A stretch of DNA of 64,000 nt. Source: Paramecium tetraurelia (taxonomy: Eukaryota). Shown piece after piece: positions 50 through 17,062 of this stretch. The position numbers and the translations under genes were made by a program. Location: positions 1-64,000 of the forward strand of contig CT868013.1 in the NCBI GenBank assembly GCA_000165425.1, in the 5' to 3' direction. The notes under the pieces are model-generated. The model was given only the letters and a program-made list of their open reading frames with translations, was not told the DNA's origin and made no database searches. Numbering within the stretch: the stretch's first letter is position 1; every line of letters starts with the position of its first letter.

Positions 50-146
50 CCAAACCCAACCCCAAACCCAACCCCAAACCCAAACCCAACCCCAACCCCA
101 AACCCAAACCCAAACCCCAAACCCAAACCCCAACCCCAAACCCAAA
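50..146 (+). repeat. Paramecium-type macronuclear telomere (C4A2/C3A3 mix)
   Basis: From 52: 8 AAACCC, 5 AACCCC and 2 AAACCCC units, with the C-rich strand at the 5' end as expected for a left chromosome end. Confidence 0.97.
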
Positions 147-1438: not shown

Positions 1439-1993
1439 CTGACTTTTCTGTATTCCTTAGATTAACATACCAATATAGTATTTTCATTGAGTTTTAATTA
1501 ATCTGAAACTGCATTGGCATCATGTGGTCATGGAGAATTTATAATATGGGAGAAAGGATTGTAAGGGAAATGGGAATTTAAATATAAATAGAATGTTTCA
1601 TTATATGGATATTAAATCCATTTCTTGAATGATTATCAATTTCTTTGGGTAACTTAAAGTAAATCAAAGGATGATATTTTAGTATTTGAATTATACAATG
1701 GAGTTTTTAAATAGGATTCAAATAAAACTATTTCTTTAATTAAGAATAACCAATGTGAAGATTATATTTTATTTCCAATAATACATAATAAAGATAGAAA
1801 TGTGATAATGGTAAGACACAAACATCATATCTATTTGATCAGACAATTAAATGATGGCACATTTATTATTCTTGCATCATTAGATTCTAAAACTACACAG
1901 ACTTTTGGAACTCTCACCAATAACGCCTAATATTTACTATTTTGGGATAATAAATTTCAAAAATATTCATCATATGAGATATAATATAAGTGA
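1439..1993 (+). CDS. 3' part of a ciliate WD40/beta-propeller family protein (5' end lost in the gap)
   Basis: Code-6 frame SLSFNQSETALASCGHGEFIIWEK...FPIIHNKDRNVIMVRHKHHIYLIRQ...FGTLTNNAQYLLFWDNKFQKYSSYEIQYK ending TGA at 1991-1993. Confidence 0.7.
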
Positions 1994-3108
1994 AGCATCT
2001 AAGTATTTATCATCTTGATCATAATTAAATGAATTATTTTCATTATTATTTAGAATTTAATATTAAAAATTTATCATTTTTAACTAAAAAGGGTTAAGAT
2101 AGTGATGAACTGCGTATCTATTATAATAATAATATATATGATTTTTTCGGAAATCTAAATACTAATTTTGATTCTGAAGTTAGTCAATATTTAATTTTTT
2201 TCTCATAAAGTTTACTATTTAATTTGCTTGTTTTCCTCTTATGTTTAGAATAATTACAAAATACATTCCAATTCTAAATTATTTAATTTCTAAAGATAGG
2301 AGACATAATAAAAAATTAAGTTTCTTGAATCTTATGAAAAATACAAAATATAATCATATTAATTTGAGATATTTTAGAAATTATTATAATGTTATATTGC
2401 ACCAAAATCCCATTAATTGTAAAATTAATTAGATGACAGATTCTTAAGCTTAAACTAGATTTAGGGATATTAAATATTATAAAATAAATGTTTAGCCAAT
2501 TAGTTAAGAACTATAAAGGAGTTATTTTGATCTTTAATAGAAAACAATTTGATCCAATACTCGAAAAACATAATTAAATTATCGAATGTGAGAGTTTCTT
2601 TTTTCAAAGTGGTAAATAATGGTTAAGGTTGCGAAATAGAGGAATGCAATTTAATTGATTAGAGTAGATATGGCTCATAATATATGTCATGTTATTTTAG
2701 AGACAAAATACATTTCATCCAATTTGGAAAGAAATAATCCAAATTGAATATTAATCCTACTTCATAAATTTATAAAGGTGATCTCAAGCAATGAGATTAT
2801 TCTCTAATGTTTACAAAATTTTTAAGGATCTTTTGTACAGATTTAATTATTAACCAAATCTGTATAAATTTAACTTTCAAAAGAAAGAAGACTTTATTGA
2901 AAAGAAATCAGGGGTATGATCAATTAGTAAATTCTATTTAATAAAACTGTTCTTGTAAAATGGGATATGAGATATTTCATAATAATTTAGCAATCCTTAC
3001 TTTAAATGTGACAGAAAAGGAAAATATGAAATTAGAGAATGCCTCAGTTTAATTGTGATTTAAAACTTTTTTGACAATAAGGAGATTAGAGAACAATCTA
3101 TACCTTTG

Positions 3109-3258
3109 NNNNNNNNNNNNNNNNNNNNNNNNNNNNNNNNNNNNNNNNNNNNNNNNNNNNNNNNNNNNNNNNNNNNNNNNNNNNNNNNNNNNNNNNNNNN
3201 NNNNNNNNNNNNNNNNNNNNNNNNNNNNNNNNNNNNNNNNNNNNNNNNNNNNNNNNNN
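3109..3258. other. Assembly gap (150 N)
   Basis: Run of N. Confidence 1.
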
Positions 3259-3303
3259 AATAATTCCTCCAATCGCCATTCCAACAGGTCCAAAAGGAGC
3301 ACC

Positions 3304-5019
3304 TCATAATATGCCACTCTCAAAGCCTAATTAACCAATTCCAGAAATCAAGCACTAAGATGCCATTATGTTAATTAAAGCATTGGTTTGATTTATCGTG
3401 AAGTCTTATTATAAGCATTCCAAAGATTTTTTTTCCTACTCGATGTCGATTATTCCTTTTAATACCAATATGCAAATATTTAGTTTTAAGGTTTTCATTA
3501 CTTCATCAATTTCTTCCTAAAATTTCTTTTAATTGAAACCGAATTAGTCTTAATATTCAAATTTAAATACTTCAATATAGGTTCTAGTAAGATTTTTTAA
3601 TTGGTTCGAAATATCAGGGTATTTTGATTCATTGAAAATCTTATTTAATTAAATTTGAATCTATTGAAATACATTCTCCAATTCTTTCTTAATTAAAGAG
3701 ACAAATTTTCTCTAATCAAATCCTTAGTTTTTTTGTTCATATTCACAAAATGATAGAAATTCAAAAATTCTTTTACATTAAAAATTCACCAATGTTTCTA
3801 TTTTAGGCTTTATTTTCTACTCAACTACTGAGTCCCAATAGGTCTTTCTCTTCAATGGATCAAGCGCAAAAGCATAGTTATTTTTAACTTATTTGATTGT
3901 TACAGTGTAAATTTATTGATTTTAATTTTATTGCTATTCTATATTTTATACAATAAATTCCAATTATGGGAATAATATTACTTCTTCTTCCGTTGGATAA
4001 TAGGAATGATATTTTTATAATTAGAAACACGGATGAGGAATTTCTTAATCTAAAATGATATTGTAAAGTATCCCATAAAATTTTTCAGAAGCAAATGTTT
4101 TTGCCACTTTTATAGATGTAGATGTGCTAGTAATCGTATTCCAAAATAATGAAGTTTAGTCATCTTTTGATTAATTTAGATCTCTCATAATTTATTTAAA
4201 GATATCTTCATCGATGAAGGATATTCCTCTATAAAGACTTCCAATTTTATTGTATTTATTTTAATGTTCCTCAAATCCTTTGTAAAGACACAATATAATG
4301 TTCGTAATTTATGAATAATTATGCTCAGCAAACTATTAGTTAAAAGTTAGACTAATCTCTTCTCTGGTGTAGAGATAAATCAATTTCTCAAACAATTAAA
4401 ATTTCTATTCAGGTTTTTCTTTTTATTTATTTTCTAAATCTTAGAAAATGACATGCTTTTAATTTTATTTATTTTAGATAGAAAGCAAATTTTCTATTTC
4501 TTCAAAGACCTCTGATTCATTAAGTGTTTTGTTTTTTTTTAATTCTTCTATGACAACTAGAAATTAGATGCTCACATGACTTTTTGAATGTTGATATTCA
4601 ATTGTTTGCCTTTACGGCGGTGATAATAATTTGATGAATTCATTTTGGATGTCCAATTAATTCATACTCATAATAGCATCATCATGCGCTTATTAAAACG
4701 AATCTGATACTATAGATTTTATTTAGATATAATTTTTGAATAAGTCAAAATGATTCTATCTTCTTCCGCAAAATACGATAATGTTTTATTTTGTGTGTTT
4801 TACAAGTTAATAAGCACATTACCCACTAGTTAGGATAGTTATATTTTTATCTCCAATATTTTACAATAATTCACATGCCTGAGATATGTCATTAAAAGCT
4901 TAAAATGCATTTTAGTGAACATCTTGTAATTTCTCACAATATAATTTGTTTTCCCAATTAAAAATTTGGCTATCAACCCAAATAAGAAAAGGATAGTCTT
5001 GCTTTTGATTTTAATTCAT
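3304..5019 (-). CDS. R-S-E class (ARTC, cholera-toxin-like) mono-ADP-ribosyltransferase domain protein, 571 aa to the first TGA
   Basis: Intronless code-6 ORF from ATG 5019. Motifs LYRG (4236-4225), WNTITSTSTS (~4143-4114) and HSYYPTEEEVILFP (EEE 3990-3982). N-terminal LIWVD...ITILTSG...IIVFCG alpha/beta domain. Confidence 0.85.
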
Positions 5020-5819
5020 ATATATTAATTCTATTACAAATATAATTTTATCGGCTTTAAAAGTGTATAATAATTATATATTAAATAATTAAATTCATTT
5101 TTTTCTTTAAAAAAATTACTTTATAGAGATGACGAATGCACAGGCGGATTCTTAAAAATGAATTGATTGATTTAATTTTCAAAAGCAACAGTAATGGATT
5201 GATTGATTCTATTTTTGTTATAAACTTCTTTAGAATCTAAAAATTTAAATACCTATTTTAAGAGTGTAAATATTGAGTTTCTTTATATTCTGATTTTTAA
5301 ATTTAATTAAATAAATAATAATAGTTTTAAATTGGTAAAATACTATTTCTAAAATCAACAACTAAGAACTTAAATCTAAATATATATTAGAAAAACAACT
5401 CTCTTTATAGATCTGCTGAAAGTTAAAATAATTTATTTCCACCAAAAAAAAATTTTCAAAAAAACAAAAAAATTTGATATAAAATCTAAATTTTATATGA
5501 GTACTAATGAGTATTCTTTATATTGAAAGATGCACAATTTTTGTAATAATTTTTAAATAATAAATAGTAGGTTTCCAGTTATGAATAGTTGTAATAAAGA
5601 TTAATTTTCCTCAATGACAATTTTATTCTATTCATATATTTGCATTTGATTGGTTTTTGTTTCACCTATTCTCTTAATAACTAAGAAAGTGTGTATTTAA
5701 TTGATGTCAAATATATAATTTAACTCAGACTTTGATGAGAGATTTTGCTTTGAGCAGTAGCAGTATATAAAATACTTTTTAGAGATCCAAGATTATATTT
5801 ATTAAATTTTAGATTTTTG

Positions 5820-8800
5820 ATGATTTTCATATGTATGGTTGTTTTGAAAACTACATAGGCCTTTGAAATATAAGAATTAGATCCATTGTATTAGGTAGCA
5901 CATCAATCGGTAAAGATATAAGATGTTGATTTTTAACCAAATAAATACTTTAGCTATGGCATTTGGTCAAAATATACTCCACTTAGTGCAATACCTAAAA
6001 CTGGTCCAGTTGGATTATTTGAAAGCGATTGTTATCACCTTCACCATGTACTTGATAAAGAGAACAACGAATTAAACCTAATATATTACGACTGTTTAGA
6101 TTTTGAGGCAAGCAAAATAACAAAGACAATTAAGTTTGTTAACGATAAAGATGAATAAAAAACATACTAAATTGAGGTGGAAATATTTAAATATGAAAGT
6201 TTTTGGTATTTCCTTGAAGTACTTGAATGGCCACTATAATAACGATTTGAAATTTTTATAATATCATAAGAGAAAATAATAATTCATAGTATTGACGAGA
6301 TGAATTATCCATTCAAGGGAAGAGACCTCTAATTTACTTTTGGAAGTAGTTTAATTGTAAGTAATTCAAGAATAGAATCTATCTAAAAAGATTAAAAATT
6401 CTCATACTTTCCTGGAACCATTATTAAATAAAATTTTATGATATTAGAAGAACTGACGATCATTGATTGGTTTGATTATGTAAAAGGTGTATTTGCTGAT
6501 TATGAAGTATGTAATTGTTAACCAAATTATTTTCCAAAAATTGAAGACTTGAATATTGACTCTTAATAAAAAGGAGATTTTGTCTCATAAAATATAATTT
6601 GTGATTCTTTTATTTTTTCCGGCTGGGTAAAAATCTAAGAAATAATTAAAGAAGACAGTTAATTTCTATATCCATTTATAAAATTAGCTGCTAGTTTTGA
6701 GGATTCAAGATTATCTAATGATAACTTATCCCCATTTTAAATTCAATATAAATTATCAGATAATTAGAATTAAATTATAGTAACAACTTATAGCTACACT
6801 TTTCCAAAAGTTTCAATTGATTTTTCTGCTGATCCATTCCTGATAAAGGAATCCTTTGATATAATCCAAAACATACATTTATGGCATAAAATATAAGTAA
6901 AATTAATAGGAAACTCAATGGATATTTAAATAAAATTTTATGAGTAGTTAATGATTTTCGAGTATAGCCTTAAAGTAGAAGTTCATCAATTTTAGTCGTA
7001 CTATCTAAAATTAGTATATGGTAATATTAAGTAGTTAAATTCAAATTACTTAAGTATATTAATGAGAAATTTCTTTTTTTTAAATTGCGATCAAATTTTT
7101 TCTGAGCATAATTGTCATAACAGTTGTTAAGAATGCGATGGCCCAACTAATGAAGATTGTCTATCTTGTTCAGAAGAATCCAAGAGAATTTATTTGCCTG
7201 AACATAAAGTATGTGTCTGTCCTTACAATACAGTTGATGATTAAATTTGTATCGGATATTAAGAAACAAAATTAGAGTTTATTGATGAACCTTACACCAA
7301 AACTGATTGCCAATTTGGTTATTTTGAAGTAGATAATGAATGCGTATAATGGTAACTATTAGATTATTTATAGATATAGTCCTTCAATCATAAGGGATGA
7401 TTTAATTGTTTGTGTAGAATGTTTGTAAAATCCTAAATCTTTTAGTTAAAAGCCATTCTGTGAATATGATTTATACATAGGTCAATCTCAATAGACATAA
7501 AGATTATAATGGACTCCTCCTGATTAATTACTTTTTGATGGAAATGATGTTAGTATGTATCCATGCATAGGGTGTAACAATACTGCTATAAATGATTTTA
7601 ACTATCTGTACTCAGGCTTTTTATATAGTTCCTTCCCTTCTAAATTAAATTGCCTATCTGATGACTATAAGTGTCTATAAAAAATGTCTTAAACATGCAA
7701 AGAATATGTTATATCAGTTTTTGGAGTTAGGTGTAATAGGTGTTCTGATCTTTATATATAAGATGGCATCGACTGTATCTTTATATTTGATAATATGGAA
7801 GAACCTTGTCAAAAACCCTATTATAAAAGTTTTGATAGAAAGTGTAAATTATGCCCTAAAAGGAATTGTGTCTACTGTTTCGAATACTAAGATGACGAAT
7901 CTTCTTTCAAAAGCACATTGTATAAGGATTTTGAAAGCCCTAATAGTGATTAGATGATATAGATTGGTTGTGCAATGTGTGAAGATGGCTTTATTTTTGA
8001 CTTTAAAATTGGGGAATGTCTAAGATATTAATCAAAAATTTAAACTTGTTTAAGATCATTTATCAATTTGGATGGTATTGAAATATGTACTCTCTCAACC
8101 TAAAATGACTTTAGTGTTGCACCTGAAATTGTAAATTGTGATACATACTACTCCAATTGTTTATAATGTGTTCTCACTCCTTCATCAAAGCTACAATGTG
8201 TACTCTGTAGAGAAGGTTATGTGAGTTCTATTATAACTGGGAACTGCGAGTTGAATTAGCTTTCTTTAGTTTTTTAGAACAGCACTTATGTAATAGAAGG
8301 TGGTGTAAAGGATTAAGATGGATATGTTCAGTTGATTTAGAGTTTTTTAATGTAATTTTTACCTGACTCATATTATTATTCATACTCTCCAGAATAAATA
8401 TCATACTAGACAATTAAATGTAAAAATGGGTATGATTTGACAATTTAGTCAATGTGTTTTTAATATTGTAGAAGCGAATGCTTAAATTGTTAAAAGGATT
8501 ATTACAGTTTCATTTGCATGAGATGCCCTTTAAATTACTACAAAAGACCTATGTTGGTTGAACTTAATGGACAATGCATAGCCTGTTCTAATTTATGCTA
8601 ATATTGTAGTGTGAGAAATTAGGATGAAATTTCTGTATTATCTCAATAATATATTAGGCTTTACAACCAAATTTCGAATTGCAGGAATCAAATACTCAAT
8701 TTACTACAAAATGTTTAAAATCAGTTAAAGATCCGAATATAGTCCTCGATACTAACTTGGGAAATGCTAAATACTGTTTTAACAAAAGCTGTTAAAATTG

Positions 8801-11800
8801 GTTTTCATTCTCCGTGTATTTTACTGAATGCATGTTAGATAGGTATCTCCCTGATAGTTATTAAGATGATATAAATTTTTAATATTGTAACCTAGTAGGA
8901 GTAGATTAAATGACTATAAATTATATTATCTCACTCCAAGATAATATTAAAATTTGTGATGGTTTTGCTGCAACTTTATGGAATGGCTTAAAGAAGAAGA
9001 TATTTTCTCTAAAGAAAACAAATATGCGATTATTTCCTGTTAAAGAATATGAAATGCGTGTAAGCAGTAGAATTGAAATATTAAACTTTGATGCAGTAGA
9101 GCTCAAAAATATCACCTTTGTTGAGTTTTATGGCTGTAATTTAGAAAATCCTGATAACAAAGTCGATATAACATTAAATAATATAAATTTCATTAAAACC
9201 AGCTTTACTAGTCTGACAATTTTCCAAACTAAAATATTAGGAAATATTGTAATTTAGGATGTTAACCTTTTAGATTCTGTCTTTGTTAATTCAACATTTT
9301 TTGATTTTTCAAAACAAACTGTTTTAATATCATTTCATATAAAAAATTTAACCTTTAAAAACTGTCGAATAGAAAATTCAATATTGTTTAATATTGACTA
9401 TATTTAAGACATTCTCACTATTGAAAATATCCTTATTGAAAATTGCGTACTATTAAATTCTGCATTTTTCACATCCTAAACAGATTTAAACCGTGCAACC
9501 TAAATTAGATTAATTAACATTGAAATAACTCAATGTAACTTTGATTATTCTTTTCTTCTGCAAGGCGACAGTAGGTTTGAAATAATTGCAAACAATCTCT
9601 TTTTCCACAATAACTATCTTAAAAATTCTGTATTTATTACTTTTAATGATAATCTAGATTTAGTTAAGGTAAGAAGTAGTTATAACACTCTAATTGAATC
9701 TTCAATTTTATCGACATTAATACTCATAAATGAATAAAGGCTTATGTTCACACTGGATGATTTTGAAGATGATTCTAGTAATTTTTAATAATCAAGTTTG
9801 ATAATTGTTTATTCTAGTCTTCAAATCAATAATTTCTATGTTAATATTAAAAATGTAAAAGTTCAGGAAAATAGCCTACCTGATAAGTTATATTTATAGA
9901 ATTACCTATTTAAATTTCATTGCCACTCATTAATAGTTTAAAATGCTTAATTTTTAAATTTGTAAAATTTAGCCATGTTTTATCTTTATGAAATTAATTA
10001 GATAAACTTTAATTCGGTAATTTTTGAGAATTCTTAATAAGATCATAAAGTTCCTGTCTCGTAATCTTGTACTGATTTAAGTGAATTCAGGAATTAACCA
10101 TTATACATTATTGGTTTTTAGTAATTATCGCTGTTAAACATACAAATAGTTAATCAATTTAGTATTAATTATTCATTAATGGATATAAGTTTTAGTACTC
10201 AGTTTATTATTGACAAAATAGGATAAATAATTTTAGAAAATGTATAATTTAGAGGAAATGTAATATTAAAAAACAAAGTAGCCACATCATTATCATTGAT
10301 AAATATATTCTCTCAATATAATTTAAATATCAAATTGACCAATTTTTAGTTTATCCAAAACATAGTCAATTAACAAATTGATGAACCACTTGACACATAA
10401 ACAAATTTATTACATATAAGTTCCTTAGATAGCTTCCTTTAAATTCAACAACTGTATTTTAATCAAAATGCCTTAACGAATTCAACTAATCCAATCATTA
10501 CTCTTACTGCAACTTTGATTGAAATTTCAAATCTAATCTTCATGAATTCTAATTTTTTATCATAAAGTTTATGGTAACAATTTTACGATTTTGAATTAGA
10601 GAATTAATATAATCAATAAGAAATTAACTCAATTATTCAATCAACATTTAAAATTTTAAATTAAGGCATCTATATTGCAGCTTCCACCTTTAGCTGTGAA
10701 GATTGTTTTTTTTAAGAAATTATTGCTATTAAAGCTTCTATTTTTTAGATTAAAACTCAAGGACAAGGAATAATAAAAATAAGTAACCTTGAGATAGATT
10801 CTGTATATACTAATCTAAAAGATACTGGGAGTTCAGGTTGCATAAGTGTAGATTCAACAAACAGCCTTTTATCTATTGATCTGAGACAAATCAAATTTAC
10901 CAATATTTTCAATAGGATGTCTACCTCATTATTTTCTATTACACCCTCTTTAAAAGAAAATGTTATTCGTTTAAATAATATTGAAATAAAGAATTGTCTT
11001 TCCTTAAAGAATACAGTCATGTTAGCCAAATTTTCGGCAGAAGTAATGAAATAAAGTTTAGTAAGTATCAATAATTTATCAATTTATTAAAGTGAAGAAT
11101 TGTGGTTTTAACTATTTTCCTTAATTGGTGATATATCATTATCAGAATTAGAGAGTATTTTAAGCTTAGAGAACGCTATGATTTTTCTTGAAAATTGTAA
11201 AGTTGATATCCAAAACCTAAATGTTGAAGGAATTGTAATCTCTCCAATTTTTAAATTTTATAATGCATTTACTTTAAGGCTTTTTGATTGTAAACTAATG
11301 TTTATAAAAAAATTATATTCCTTTGATCTCATACACATAACTTAGACTATAATAGCTGAATCAAAGATTTCTATTGAAAAACTAAAGATACTTTAAAGTA
11401 TTACATATAAAGAACAATCAGATGGAATTCCGATCTTTTAAGATTTGAATTATAAAATTTTAGGATGCAGTGTGTGGAGGAGCGCCTCATAAACAGGATA
11501 AACTGTTTATTCAAATATAATAAGTTAGATATAATCATCTGCTGATCAATCAAATCAGTTGATATATGTTAAAAGTATCTCTGACTAAAACTCCATTAGG
11601 CTTTCGCATTTAGAAATAATAAATAATGATGGATCAGACTTTTCAAATGGAATGATCACTTTTGAAGTTGAACAGTTCAAAATTATTAAAATAGATAATA
11701 TATTTTGCTTTTAAAATGATGTAAAAGAAAATGGTTGTTTCTACTTTTTGATCTAAAATTTTATTAATTCAACTATTATAATCAAAGATTCTTATTTCCT

Positions 11801-14418
11801 ATAGAATAAGGGTAGTCTTGGAAGTGCTATACTAATTTAAAATGTTAAATTAAGAATGACAAATTGCAAAATAATCTCTAATTATGCAAGCAAATCAGGT
11901 GGAGGATTGTTTTTATAACTAAAGGATACAGATTTTTAGATTAAATAAACAATTATTACTAATAATGAGGCCTTAGTTGGAGGAGGAATTTACTTCAATG
12001 AAGATGGAACTATACTCCTTCAAAATTTTATTAAATCTTTCTTATTATTTAATAAAGCAACATAGTTTGGAGATAATCTTATTGAATCTCCTAGCCATTT
12101 GACATTGCTGATTAACAACTTACAAATGCAATCTAAAAAGTAAGACATTAAGTCGATACTCAGTCATCATTTAGCTCTTCAACCTTATAGTCTTATCGAA
12201 TAAGGAAAACCTTTTATTACAAATTATTTAATGATCCCAAGTAACTAAGTTATCGATTAATATCAAATTTATTAGCCTTCTAAAGTTCAATACTCATCTT
12301 ATATTACAAATTTTGTTCTTATTCTAAAGAATAGTTTAAACGAATAACTTCCCAACCTTCTTAGTACTACATGTACTCTAACCAGCAAGACTATAAATGA
12401 ATTAGGTTTGACTTAGGAGGATGGGTTGGCTGAGCAACAAAATTTGCAATTCGATTTAGAAAAAGATTACTATAATTTAGGTTCTCTTTTCTTCGTTTTT
12501 GATCCTTATAATTAAGAAAACAAACAATTACAAATTGAAATTAGTTGTAAATCAGTGTAACATTAAAAAGTTTTGAATTACATTATATAAGCTAAAAGTT
12601 TGAAATGCTAACTTGGAGAATTTTATGTAAATTCCGGTTGTTAAATTTGCTCATCAAGTTAAGGATTTTACTCTGTAGTATACGATGCAACAAAGTGTTC
12701 AATATTTGATAAAACCAAATTTAATAACATAACTGAAAATAATATAGAATTATTAGAGGGCTTTTGGAGACCTGATTATTTATCCGATTTTATAGAATAA
12801 TGTTTTAAAAACTTTAAGTTTTGTAAAGGTGGTTGGGGATATGGAAATTAAATATGTGATTTAGGACATATTGGAGCATTATGTGAAGAATGTGATATTT
12901 ATAATATAAGAGGAGATGGAAAATATTTAAAAAATTAATAAGATTCATAGTGTATATCTTGTTTTGGCGTTGAGGACAGCATAATCCCATTTATAGCAGC
13001 ATCAATTTGGTAATTTAATTTCATATTTTAGGTCGTTTATATCAATTATTATAACTTTAAGGAGTATTGAATAGTCGAATCAATTATTCAAGTGTTTAAA
13101 ACTACAATAAAGGTTTAGCAAAATTATTTTTAATTTAGAATAAGGTAAATTAATGATTCAATTTAAGGACATGAAAGTTTTTTAATAAAAATGTTATTAA
13201 ACTATTTATGGATTTTCTCTGTTATCTTTACATTCAATATACAATTCTCGTTTTCATTTACTTTTGTTGATTCAGCGAGTAATACATCCTACTCTATGAC
13301 TAATAATCTTGATTGTTATTTATCAGAAAATCAAGAAATAAAGTTGATTTACTCTAAAATTATTACAATGCTTGTACTCATGATATTCTAATTTATACTA
13401 ATAATAATGGGATATCTCATTTATAATTGGTATAAGAAGATTGGATTGAGTAATTTTAACTTGGAAACTATTTCTAATACAATTCTCTACCTTTATATTT
13501 CTAATTATGGTGGATTAGTTAAAATGTAATTCGACAAAGATTATTTTTAGGTATTTTTCAATTGTCTCAAAAAGAACTGTTTCAAGTTAGAGTTATATAC
13601 AAGGTGATGTTTCACTATTTTTTGGATCGAGAGAGCATTTAATCTGGATTTTTGCCTTTGTAATTCCAGGACTATGCGTTTTTAGTATGATCATTCCTCT
13701 ATCTCTTTTTATGGTTATGTACATTAAGAAAGATTAACACGACACTATCTAAATAAGAAAGCATTTTTGTTATCTAATTAATGAATACAATAACAGAAGT
13801 TATTTTTGGGAAGAAATTAAGTTAATTAAAAAGACAATCATTATTTTAATTTTAACATATTTTGAGACTTATATTCTACTGAAAGCATCGTTGTTGGGAT
13901 TATGTTTGCTTTTTTATTAGTTATTAGCTTTTAACGAGAAACCCTACATTCTCTCCAATTTCAATAGCAAAGATTTATCTTCAGCACAAATTTGCTCTAT
14001 CACAATTTTTCTTGCTGCTGCCAAATATGTAGCTGAATAAGAAAATAATTAATTTTCATCGATATCACTTTAGACTATTATTGTCCTTCTTTGTATTAAA
14101 CTTTGTTATGCATTTATCAAGAGCATATTAGAAGTTTACTCGAACAAGTATGCTAATTTAATCTTAAATTACTTATATTTAATTTTGAATATGATTTCAT
14201 AAGATTCATCTTTGACATTAAAGTTAAAAAATTACTTGCAAAAGTCTAGTTAGAGAAAAAAGAGATCGAAATATTTGATAAAAAAACTTAAATAATATTT
14301 GTTGAAAGCTTCCAAAGCTCAATTATAAGGTTATTAAAAAGTCCTAAGCTCTCATATCAAGGAAACATAATCAACTGGATCAGAATAAAAATACTTTTTA
14401 AAAATTGATACTGATTGA
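5820..14418 (+). CDS. Giant (~2,800 aa) ciliate surface/membrane protein: signal peptide, furin-like Cys-rich repeats, parallel beta-helix (GGxI/L) region, Cys-rich stalk and multi-pass TM C-terminus
   Basis: Code-6 frame (spot-checked) with 5 short introns (e.g. 7352-7379, 8635-8657, ~13010, ~13145, ~13526). CHNSCQECDGPTNEDCLSC; GSLGSAI, GGGLFL and GGGIYF repeats; GFWR...C..GHIGALCEECD; several hydrophobic helices at 13000-14150. Start codon approximate. Confidence 0.85.
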
Positions 14419-14917: not shown

Positions 14918-17062
14918 ATGTAATCAGAACTTGAGATTTAGGCAGTGATAGGATTCACAGGTATGTATACTTCATATATTTAAAGGGAGAATAACTCAAG
15001 GATTAGTTCTGCATCCTGACAATGAGGTATGATATATCATAATAGTCCAAAGCATATTCTTTATCCATTAGGTTCTACTATAGTAGTTAGACATATAATT
15101 ACAAGACAATAAACATTTTTAAGGTATGGAAATATCATATATCAAATTAGAGGACACGACAATTAGATCTCTGTAATAACAGTTTCTAGAACTGGAGATT
15201 ATGTAGCATCTGGGTAGAAAACTTATATGGGGTTCTAAGCTGATATAATAATTTGGGATTTCAAGGAGAGAAGCATGATTCATAGGTTGAAATTACATAA
15301 AGTATTGATCCAATCTCTCAGTTTCTCATATAATGAATTATACTTGGCATCATTGGGAGGGATTGATGATAAAAACATGTTGATTATTTGGGATATTAAG
15401 GCAGGGAAGGCATTATATGGAACTCCAAATCGAGACCCAGTTAATTAAGTCTAATTTTACAACTAATCAGATGAAAAGATGATTGCAGTTTTAAATACTG
15501 GAGTTTAGATTTTAACAATTGACAAATTAAATAAAAAGGTATAGTATATACATATATATACAGATTCAATCCGTAGATGTGAGTTTTGGAAATGTCAAAA
15601 GAACCTTTACTTGTGTTGCAATTGATAGAAATGATAAATTTTGCTATTGTGGAACAAAGACCGGTGACGTATTTGAAATTTAAATGGATAATGCTATTTA
15701 CAAAAGATTAGCTCCAGTCAAGAAGCTATTTTCATAAGGAGTTAACTGTTTGGGATTATTGCAAAACGGAGACATCATCGTGGGAGCAGGAGATGGTATG
15801 ATTGCAAAAGTGTCTTTTCAAACAATGCAGATCGTAGCAAGCAGTGAATTACTTGGAGGTGTGACATCAATTTCGTTTACAAATGATTAGACTCATTTTT
15901 TCGCAGGAACAGTTCAAAGCAATATTTATTGGTTGGACACTGAAAAATTGATACCAGAATTGAGAAATACTTGCCATTATGAAAGAATTAATGATGTAGC
16001 CTTTCCTCATAATTATTCTGACGTATTTGCTACCAGTTCCTTGAATGATATCAGGGTTTGGAATGCTAAGAATAGATAAGAATTACTGAGAATTCAAGTT
16101 CCAAATCTTGAATGCTGGGCAGTAGCCTTTATGAATGACGGTAAAAGTATTGTAAGTGGTTGGAGTGATGGAAAAATTAGAGCCTTCTTACCATAGTCAG
16201 GTAGATTACTCTATGTAATTAATGATGCACATATCCATGGATGCACATCATTGACTTGCACTTCGGATTGCTAAAGAATTATTTCAGGAGGATCAGAAGG
16301 AGAAGTTAGAGTATGGGAAATTGGAAAACAAACTTAAGTTATGAAATCCTCAATGAAGGAACATAGAGGAAGAGTATGGTCCATTTAAGTTAGGAGAAAC
16401 AATGACTAAGCTGTGAGTGCCAGTGCAGATGGATCTTGCATTATTTGGGATCTTAAATCATTTACAAGAGTCATGTGCTTATTTGAAAGCACCTTATTCA
16501 AAATGGTTCTGTATCATCCTGAAGAGAGTTAGTTATTGACTACTGGAAGTGATAGAAAAGTATCGAATTAATTTATAAAAGATCACCTATTGGGAAACCT
16601 TTGATGGATAAGCTATCAGAATGTTGGATGGGTCTGAAGAAGGAGAAGTTAATGCTTTGGCAATTACAAAGGAAGGAGAACATTTTGTATCAGGAGGAGA
16701 AGACAAGGAGGTTAAATTATGGGGATATGATGAAGGAATTTGCTATTTCAAAGGTCAAGGACATTCAGGTACTATAACAAGAGTAATTATTAATTCTAAA
16801 TTAGATTACTATAAGTCCTGATTAAAAGACTATTATATCAGTTGGTGCAGAAGGAGCTATTTTTATTTGGAAGATGCCTGAATCTGTTATTAATTCTAAA
16901 GCATAATAAGAATTACCTACTGTTTAAAGTGTAAAAAAACAGAATGATATTCAATAATAATCTTAATAATAATAATAATCAGTGCCTAAAGATGCATAAT
17001 CATAAAAGTCCAATTAAGTTGCTAAGTCAGTCAAGTCAGGAACTAAGTCATCCAAAAAATGA
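14918..17062 (+). CDS. CFAP52: Cilia- and flagella-associated WD40 protein CFAP52 (WDR16)
   Basis: MQSELEIQAVIGFTG..GLVLHPD..HILYPLGSTIVVR; TCHYERINDVAFP; DIRVWN; SGWSDGKIRAFLPQSG; several short introns; TGA at 17060-17062. Confidence 0.9.

Follow-up and report, generated by a model that had tools for sequence, protein, structure and literature searches.

The window analysed here comprises the first 64 kb of a Paramecium tetraurelia contig (C30 of genome assembly G000), the left edge of which is a chromosome end, and carries near that end, on the minus strand at 3304-5019, a gene for an ADP-ribosyltransferase (ART) of the R-S-E type. In the encoded protein the catalytic domain is preceded by a pseudo-receiver domain and followed by a tail that varies within the protein family. 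As judged from structure models, the R-S-ExE ART fold with its intact catalytic residues is real; the kind of enzyme is known and its architecture is apparently undescribed. We give a probability of about one half to the reading that the protein is an intracellular, gated mono-ART that serves, at low abundance, as an effector of cell-autonomous defence or programmed arrest.

The ADP-Ribosyltransferase Domain

A preliminary description of this DNA had reported an intronless open reading frame (ORF) at 3304-5019, 3-5 kb from the telomere. The frame, of 571 codons from 5019 to 3304, is indeed open under code 6, as are other long frames of the window; telomere repeats lie at 50-146, and no intron joints are listed from reads across the ORF, where RNA depth is low. 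The G+C content around the gene is about 25%. The three ARTC motifs follow one another in the order given in that description, LYRG at residues 262-265, TSTS at 297-300 and YPTEEEV at 341-347 (PTEEEV at 342-347). An R-S-E triad pattern, composed after the motifs had been seen, matched 0 of 20,000 shuffles of the ORF protein and 1 of the 69 open frames of at least 200 amino acids in the window, which is the ART ORF itself. The parts of the protein discussed below are the following:

3304-5019, minus strand: annotated ORF of 571 amino acids (code 6); the true coding sequence extends beyond 3304 into an assembly gap
4630-4998, minus strand: pseudo-receiver, residues 8-130; receiver fold in the model, with conserved W14, D16, S65, G66, F83, C84 and H90
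4255-4629, minus strand: linker and N-lobe of the ART, both helical, residues 131-255, placed by the model and by the HopU1 and ART2.2 alignments
3865-4254, minus strand: ART catalytic core, residues 256-385, placed by the Vis profile match (E 2.6e-11), Foldseek, structure matches and conservation
4228-4230, 4126-4128, 3988-3990 and 3982-3984, minus strand: catalytic codons of R264, S298, E344 and E346, respectively
3385-3864, minus strand: region after the ART, residues 386-545, conserved and present in both Paramecium subfamilies; helical as judged from sequence

The fold is recognised only after deeper alignment and structure modelling, single-sequence searches being silent. With the window protein alone, Pfam returned two sub-threshold matches only, with no PF01129 and no TPR, and the searches of PDB sequences and of NCBIfam returned 0 matches each; an alignment of close relatives brought up NarE only (E 0.02-0.4). 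PF01129 matched nothing in G000, where its controls were equally silent. A deep search with residues 1-385 against 1.84 billion representatives found 44 proteins at E ≤0.001, and the Pfam ART family (PF01129) matched at E <0.01 in 22 of the 38 relatives scanned. The profile of 39 sequences built from these 38 relatives and the query, which omits very short hits and hits far from the core layout, matched Vibrio Vis (E 2.6e-11), whose R, STS and ExE align with its own, and also NarE (E 0.0027). In the model of residues 1-385 (mean predicted local distance difference test, pLDDT, 90.9; predicted template modelling score, pTM, 0.74) the motifs lie on the catalytic strands, R264 on strand 261-268, S298 on 297-300 and E346 on 346-349. 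The model matches HopU1 (3u0j) with Z 15.5 and a root-mean-square deviation (rmsd) of 3.1 over 194 aligned residues, the alignment starting at residue 164, and rat ART2.2 (1gxy) with Z 14.2 and rmsd 3.5 over 203 residues, starting at residue 143. The top 50 ranks shown by Foldseek for this model are all ARTs. The assignment as an R-S-ExE ART, made earlier from the motifs, is thus borne out by the structure model and Foldseek as well as by the Vis profile.

Of the 39 aligned rows, 37 have R264, 35 have S298, 34 have E344 (two others carrying Gln at this site) and 35 have E346. In the R-S-E clade an ExE motif points to an arginine acceptor. Because E344-E345-E346 forms such a motif in the ADP-ribosylating turn-turn (ARTT) loop, ADP-ribose would probably be transferred to arginine. 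A search of viral folds gave generic ART matches only, at 10-24% identity, among which M376R of Paramecium bursaria Chlorella virus has the highest identity listed (24%).

The Pseudo-Receiver Domain

The N-terminal alpha/beta block of about 130 residues noted earlier adopts a receiver fold (residues 8-130), which matches receiver domains with Z 10.6-12.6 (3jte with Z 12.3 and rmsd 2.7 over 113 aligned residues). Canonical receivers have a phospho-accepting Asp that ends strand 3 and a Lys after strand 5. With the receivers of response regulators (3jte, 6swl and FixJ, 1d5w) the domain shares the same five-stranded alpha/beta fold (Z 11-12.6, rmsd 2.5-4.5), D16 being the acidic residue after strand 1. 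It differs from them in that strand 3 ends in Thr-Ser-Gly where the phospho-Asp is expected (Asp occurs at position 64 in 1 of 27 rows and at position 65 in 1 of 28) and in that no Lys is conserved in the alignment rows at positions 105-106, after strand 5, both sites having been set from strand topology, without residue-level superposition. Because it is without the phospho-accepting Asp, we class the domain, on its aligned sequences, as a pseudo-receiver in which phosphate acceptance cannot be assumed. Of the earlier label "receiver-like sensor", the receiver fold stands; with the phospho-Asp missing, "sensor" is a putative role read from the fold alone.

A different set of residues is kept among the rows that cover this domain, namely W14 (22/22), D16 (19/22), S65 (24/28), F83 (30/31), C84 (26/30) and H90 (23/30), which suggests a putative binding face. 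A receiver-like segment lies ahead of the ART in 34 of the 50 proteins scanned and behind it in 2 more; the receiver profiles were partly built from this same set, and 6 proteins outside it show the same pattern.

The 3' End and the Tail

The end of the ORF at 3304, as first described, did not survive comparison with sequencing data. Four of the 24 listed runs were compared with the locus, two of contig type and two of RNA; the index of runs that contain the stretch lists none as RNA. At base 3305 both contig runs and all covering RNA reads (3/3 and 5/5) give a sense codon, so that an ORF truly ending at 3304 was rejected. The annotated stop sits 45 bp from an assembly gap, and over 3259-5900 the window and the principal X1 contigs disagree at 3 sites only, all within 150 bp of this N gap. 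This clustering points to contig-end errors, a strain difference being possible. The gap is longer than drawn, because one contig extends 1,710 letters beyond 3259.

3304-3306, minus strand: annotated stop codon, supported by 0 of 4 runs; contig-end error or strain difference
3109-3258, no strand: assembly gap, really longer than 150 bases, in which the remainder of the glycine zipper and a PEBP-fold domain would be expected
3259-3342, minus strand: final segment of the glycine zipper, which keeps the frame of the ORF; 77% at the nucleotide level to L010 5083-5166
3343-3380, minus strand: junction at which about 700 bp, present in the C646 paralogue and in orthologues of 915-977 amino acids, are deleted in frame

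The window follows its closest paralogue, on C646, to 3381 (85% at the nucleotide level), skips about 700 bp and resumes in frame at 3342-3259. Contigs of both contig-type runs span the 3343-3380 junction with 0 gaps, and the deletion is therefore real; an assembly artefact was rejected on this ground. With it a small beta domain is lost, and so is the greater part of the hydrophobic helices. A quick tree, with Shimodaira-Hasegawa-like approximate likelihood ratio test (SH-aLRT) support only, puts the window gene beside a 915-amino-acid octaurelia protein, and by this placement the deletion arose recently, since the split from that sister.

The full-length tail is seen in five orthologues of 915-977 amino acids from four other aurelia species. 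They continue for about 400 residues past residue 545; a small segment rich in beta structure and long hydrophobic helices with many glycines (hydropathy 1.66-1.87) make up this extension together with a terminal PEBP-fold domain. Modelled on a C613 paralogue, the terminal domain (pLDDT ~80-90) matches YbhB with Z 13.7 and rmsd 2.6 over 125 aligned residues (Foldseek E 1.5e-5); the zipper region of the same model has pLDDT <50 and no match to a translocation domain above background. The C-terminal domain of the full-length paralogues thus shares the fold of the bacterial PEBP proteins YbhB, YbcL and CT736 (1fjj, 1fux and 3n08), from which it differs in being fused to an ART and in lacking DPDxP and GxHR. 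These are the ligand-pocket motifs of PEBP proteins; they are absent from the aligned tails, in which a His (in the window's subfamily only) and a YxGP motif remain. This comparison concerns the paralogues, the window's own part falling in the gap. The PEBP-like domain occurs in G000 only within the ART family (5 of 5 matches), with no match on C30. Compared with the Atlas, the tail scored no higher than 0.77, which amounts to leads only, and bacterial VasX-like clusters reached just 0.76.

The window gene likely encodes a product of about 740 amino acids ending in a PEBP-fold domain, the last part being deduced from the orthologues. No 19-residue window of the annotated 571 residues has a hydropathy above 1.4, and the "helical membrane tail" of the preliminary description is accordingly not found there as a strongly hydrophobic segment; what the annotated part does hold are the first residues of a glycine zipper, the rest of which extends into the gap. 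The lack of an obvious signal peptide, noted at the same time, was confirmed: the ORF protein has none, the hydropathy maximum over its first 40 residues being 0.11.

Across the gap the depth of X1 contigs falls from ~46 (2018-3108) to ~14 (3259-5900), and the contigs of both sides extend by more than 1.2 kb and never meet. This fits alternative macronuclear chromosome ends or a misjoined scaffold.

Family Members and Exchange of Tails

At least nine loci of the family are present in G000 (C30, C646, two on C613, C89, C247, C693, C223 and C47), in line with the multi-copy family that was anticipated. Those on C89 and C247 are open frames with a zipper-PEBP tail; on C223 and C693 pentapeptide and WD40 repeats replace this tail, and C47 holds a fragmented copy of the WD40 type. 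The C646 copy and both C613 copies carry frameshifts in the assembly, which may be assembly errors, since the window's own stop proved unsupported. The two C613 copies (L012 3252-6156 and L014 4020-6946) are recent; they lie ~95 kb apart in opposite orientation, are 99% identical over their last 397 residues and are each followed by the same neighbouring sequence.

In the quick tree the Paramecium proteins form one clade with two subfamilies. Since the zipper-PEBP tail occurs in both of them, WD40 and PARP tails are, on the sequences compared, probably later swaps. Proteins of other species join the same core to a PARP-like domain (P0015) or to a tail without domain match (P0014; a P-loop-like look of this tail found no support from Pfam or PDB). 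Environmental proteins join it to ubiquitin (P0028), ubiquitin and a kinase (P0035) or VWA (P0027), and P0038 repeats receiver and ART in tandem. Unusual fusions are VWA-receiver-ART (P0027), ubiquitin-kinase-receiver-ART (P0035) and ART with a PARP-like domain (P0015), together with the tandem ART-receiver repeats of P0038 and the double receiver of P0044.

All 9 other proteins of the first homologue search are labelled Paramecium, and the labels of 20 relatives looked up comprise Paramecium (5), Blepharisma, Entosiphon and two transcriptome entries, the rest being environmental. UniRef automatically tags some relatives as arginine ARTs, and databases mislabel others as "HECT domain" or "transmembrane protein". 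The octaurelia sister protein is 71% identical to the window protein; its gene model (P0003) has neither an STS motif nor a complete linker, a pattern suggestive of an intron wrongly predicted across a break, or else of a pseudogene.

Chromosomal Position, Selection and Expression

The subtelomeric setting stressed in the preliminary description has a counterpart in a bias of the family to contig ends: of the 8 loci placeable on large contigs, 6 are no more than 17 kb away from one (P ~5e-5 under uniform placement, the 9-kb contig C223 being omitted from the count), and P is 2e-3 when the window copy and one of the C613 duplicates are left out. The end of the window itself is marked as follows, the GC-rich 49-base stretch before the repeats (1-49) being probably vector or low-quality sequence.

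50-146, plus strand: telomere repeat tract of mixed C3A3/C4A2 hexamers (period 6, 15.8 copies)

C30 and C646 share a single 6-kb block (window 3.3-9.2 kb), which on C646 lies at another chromosome end, without wider synteny. C646 was rejected as a partner from whole-genome duplication, the similarity being confined to window 3.3-9.2 kb within 80 kb of C646. C686 and C336, which both share a conserved neighbour of the window gene, have no ART copy in the 20 kb beside the matching gene.

By simple pairwise counting on AT-rich DNA, the ratio of nonsynonymous to synonymous substitution rates (dN/dS) relative to C646 is 0.41 over 509 codons, with 0.27 in the receiver, 0.44 in the ART core and 0.85 in the C-terminal helices (residues 386-540). 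Values in the receiver and ART span 0.18-0.45, the neighbouring gene has 0.55, and the two C613 copies give 0.31 against each other. As estimated from these sequences, evolution of the family is fast but constrained. Expression of the ART gene is low: RNA depth over it is 0-3.4 in runs of 1.1 and 1.3 Gb, with reads oriented as for a minus-strand gene, and at the read threshold of 90% identity some of them may derive from a paralogue.

Possible Function

In the mechanism that we propose, the enzyme would bind nicotinamide adenine dinucleotide (NAD+) and transfer ADP-ribose, probably to arginine as the ExE loop indicates. The pseudo-receiver would gate this activity not by phosphorelay but through a small ligand or partner bound at W14/D16, S65-G66, F83-C84 and H90. 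The tail would set the place or the trigger of the reaction: glycine zipper and degenerate PEBP fold may tether the protein to a membrane, for example that of a food or symbiont vacuole, and in paralogues the WD40 or pentapeptide tails may bind protein ligands. The released enzyme would then modify a host or intruder protein, or drain NAD+, and thereby keep the intruder, or the compromised cell, from growing.

That the protein may act in defence or killing is plausible. The fold and motifs, the tail swaps, the gain and loss of copies, the bias to chromosome ends, the fast but constrained evolution and the low RNA level all speak for it, and the exchange of tails within the family resembles that common in intracellular defence proteins. 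Several points weigh on the other side. With 9 loci the family is small and shows no large expansion. End-proximal, fast-evolving genes of many domain types are common in ciliates, as in a study of Tetrahymena germline chromosomes (PMC6564038), so that position is not specific to defence. Telomere repeats were found at 3 of the 6 near ends (C30, C646 and C89), those of C613, C693 and C47 being bare contig ends. No domain has a dN/dS above 1, and the retention of full-length copies in four other aurelia species would also fit a steady signalling role. Membrane tethering may not apply to the window copy, as most of its hydrophobic tail is lost. More tentatively, and with less confidence than we place in the window protein as a gated effector, the family may be a protist-own one in which a ligand-controlled pseudo-receiver-ART module sits on interchangeable recognition or membrane tails and works as an intracellular immune effector of ciliates; in the boldest form of this idea, the zipper-PEBP version would be an enzyme encoded by a eukaryote that inserts into vacuole or symbiont membranes and acts on resident or engulfed bacteria.

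Among other explanations, the one that fares best is an endogenous signalling enzyme, which, acting at a membrane and controlled by the pseudo-receiver, would reversibly modify a Paramecium protein (a G protein, actin or tubulin, or a trafficking factor) and have no role in conflict. We regard this as possible, if rather unlikely. The purifying selection in receiver and ART (dN/dS 0.18-0.45) and the full-length copies retained elsewhere in the aurelia group would suit such an enzyme, as would the kinase, ubiquitin and VWA partners of distant relatives and the transcripts in two RNA runs. Less easily accommodated are the very low expression, the recent segmental duplication, the internal deletion, the broken copies and the tail swaps, as well as the identity of only 71% to the octaurelia sister, compared with 93-96% for the genome copies of the conserved neighbour.

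Improbable, in our view, is that the window copy is a decaying subtelomeric duplicate heading for loss. The in-frame loss of ~700 bp since the split from the octaurelia sister would fit such decay, and so would the dN/dS of 0.85 in residues 386-540 (C646 may be the relaxed partner in this comparison), an RNA depth near zero in several bins, the four other loci that look broken in the assembly and the missing STS motif of the sister gene model. The readable part of the frame is, however, open, its sole stop being unsupported; all catalytic residues are intact, the receiver has a dN/dS of 0.27, and reads that agree with the locus's own contigs cover the 3' part. Errors of assembly may also account for the broken look of the other copies.

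Least probable is a self-delivering single-chain toxin, the full-length protein acting across a membrane on prey, symbionts or competing protists: its order of enzyme, glycine-zipper helices and terminal beta-sandwich recalls how bacterial single-chain toxins are laid out (catalytic, translocation and binding parts), the hydrophobic stretches of the orthologues (1.66-1.87) are modelled as long helices before a PEBP-fold domain closest to YbhB/YbcL, the closest folds of the ART are bacterial effectors and vertebrate ART2.2, and the PEBP-like domain is found in G000 in the ART family only (5/5 matches), but a signal peptide is absent, WD40 repeats of cytosolic type replace the tail in paralogues, the window copy has lost most hydrophobic helices, the zipper is modelled at pLDDT <50 with no translocation-domain match above background, and the language-model match to bacterial VasX-like clusters is only 0.76.

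Relation to Known Systems

The gated effector proposed here has its nearest structural counterparts among the bacterial R-S-E ARTs, which include HopU1 (3u0j), Vis (4xzj), 6drh (which we take to be a Tre1-type pair), XopAI (6k94), ExoS (6gn0), SpvB (2gwm) and the C3/C2/VIP2 group. It shares their catalytic fold with a helical N-lobe, and R, STS and ExE align residue by residue with Vis. It differs from them in its low identity (10-20%), in being encoded by a ciliate nuclear gene, in its pseudo-receiver and variable tails, and in that no secretion signal is seen. The vertebrate ecto-ARTs (ARTC, for example ART2.2; PF01129) are small, surface-anchored or secreted and without a receiver fold. The window protein has the same fold and motif set; unlike them, it has no signal peptide, begins its receiver fold at residue 8 and does not itself match PF01129.

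A likeness to rotifer and protist ART proteins, which the preliminary description had drawn for the N-terminal block, finds support in the ART and helical part: rotifer ART-TPR clusters (automatically named "NAD(P)(+)--arginine ADP-ribosyltransferase") are the nearest in the Atlas together with ciliate ART ones, at 0.92-0.94 by features and also by structure, and most Atlas rows align from residue 137 onward. They differ in that the whole-chain template modelling (TM) score is only 0.40-0.43 and that the rotifer proteins carry TPR and not a zipper-PEBP tail; no rotifer label occurs among the 20 relatives looked up. Another ciliate locus associated with ADP-ribosylation is BUBL1 of Tetrahymena (PMC8616854), which combines ubiquitin-like and intein-like domains; compared by description, the window gene differs in having neither part. 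AACRNL, a diphtheria-type ART (PMC12957317), was set aside as unrelated. Eukaryotic mono-ARTs nest among bacterial toxin ARTs according to PMC3417536, and the Tox-ART-RSE row of a table in PMC3482391 names fungi, animals and plants, ciliates not being listed in that row. No account of a receiver-ART family in protists was found in the literature covered, subscription papers and supplements lying outside this coverage and a mention in some comparative-genomics survey being possible.

The family offers a concrete candidate for ciliate defence against swallowed or hosted bacteria and viruses, in an organism where RNA interference and tagging are routine; to our knowledge, little is known about how free-living ciliates defend themselves against bacteria and viruses. 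Receiver and ART are also found together in a heterotrich ciliate, in a euglenid and in many environmental sequences, so that knowledge of ligand and substrate would bear on a large group that lacks annotation. In practical terms, an unsupported stop shortens the assembly's gene model.

Neighbouring Genes

On the telomere side of the gap, positions 1440-2035 (plus strand) hold the 3' portion of a further gene, which is transcribed, with an RNA depth that reaches 17, and looks WD40-like by eye. The stretch 1440-3108 has 14 matches in the genome, one of which, on a contig of 5 kb, extends over 1.5 kb at 86%. A large intron-containing gene (5820-14418, plus strand) with Cys-rich stretches and a hydrophobic C-terminus stands head-to-head with the ART gene; its 5' part is duplicated together with the ART gene on C646, its 3' part is common to C686, and two of its frames gave no Pfam match. 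It is followed at 15029-17062 (plus strand) by a conserved WD40 gene with copies of 96% and 93% identity on C686 and C336, respectively. Many other WD40 matches in the genome lie near contig ends or on small contigs.

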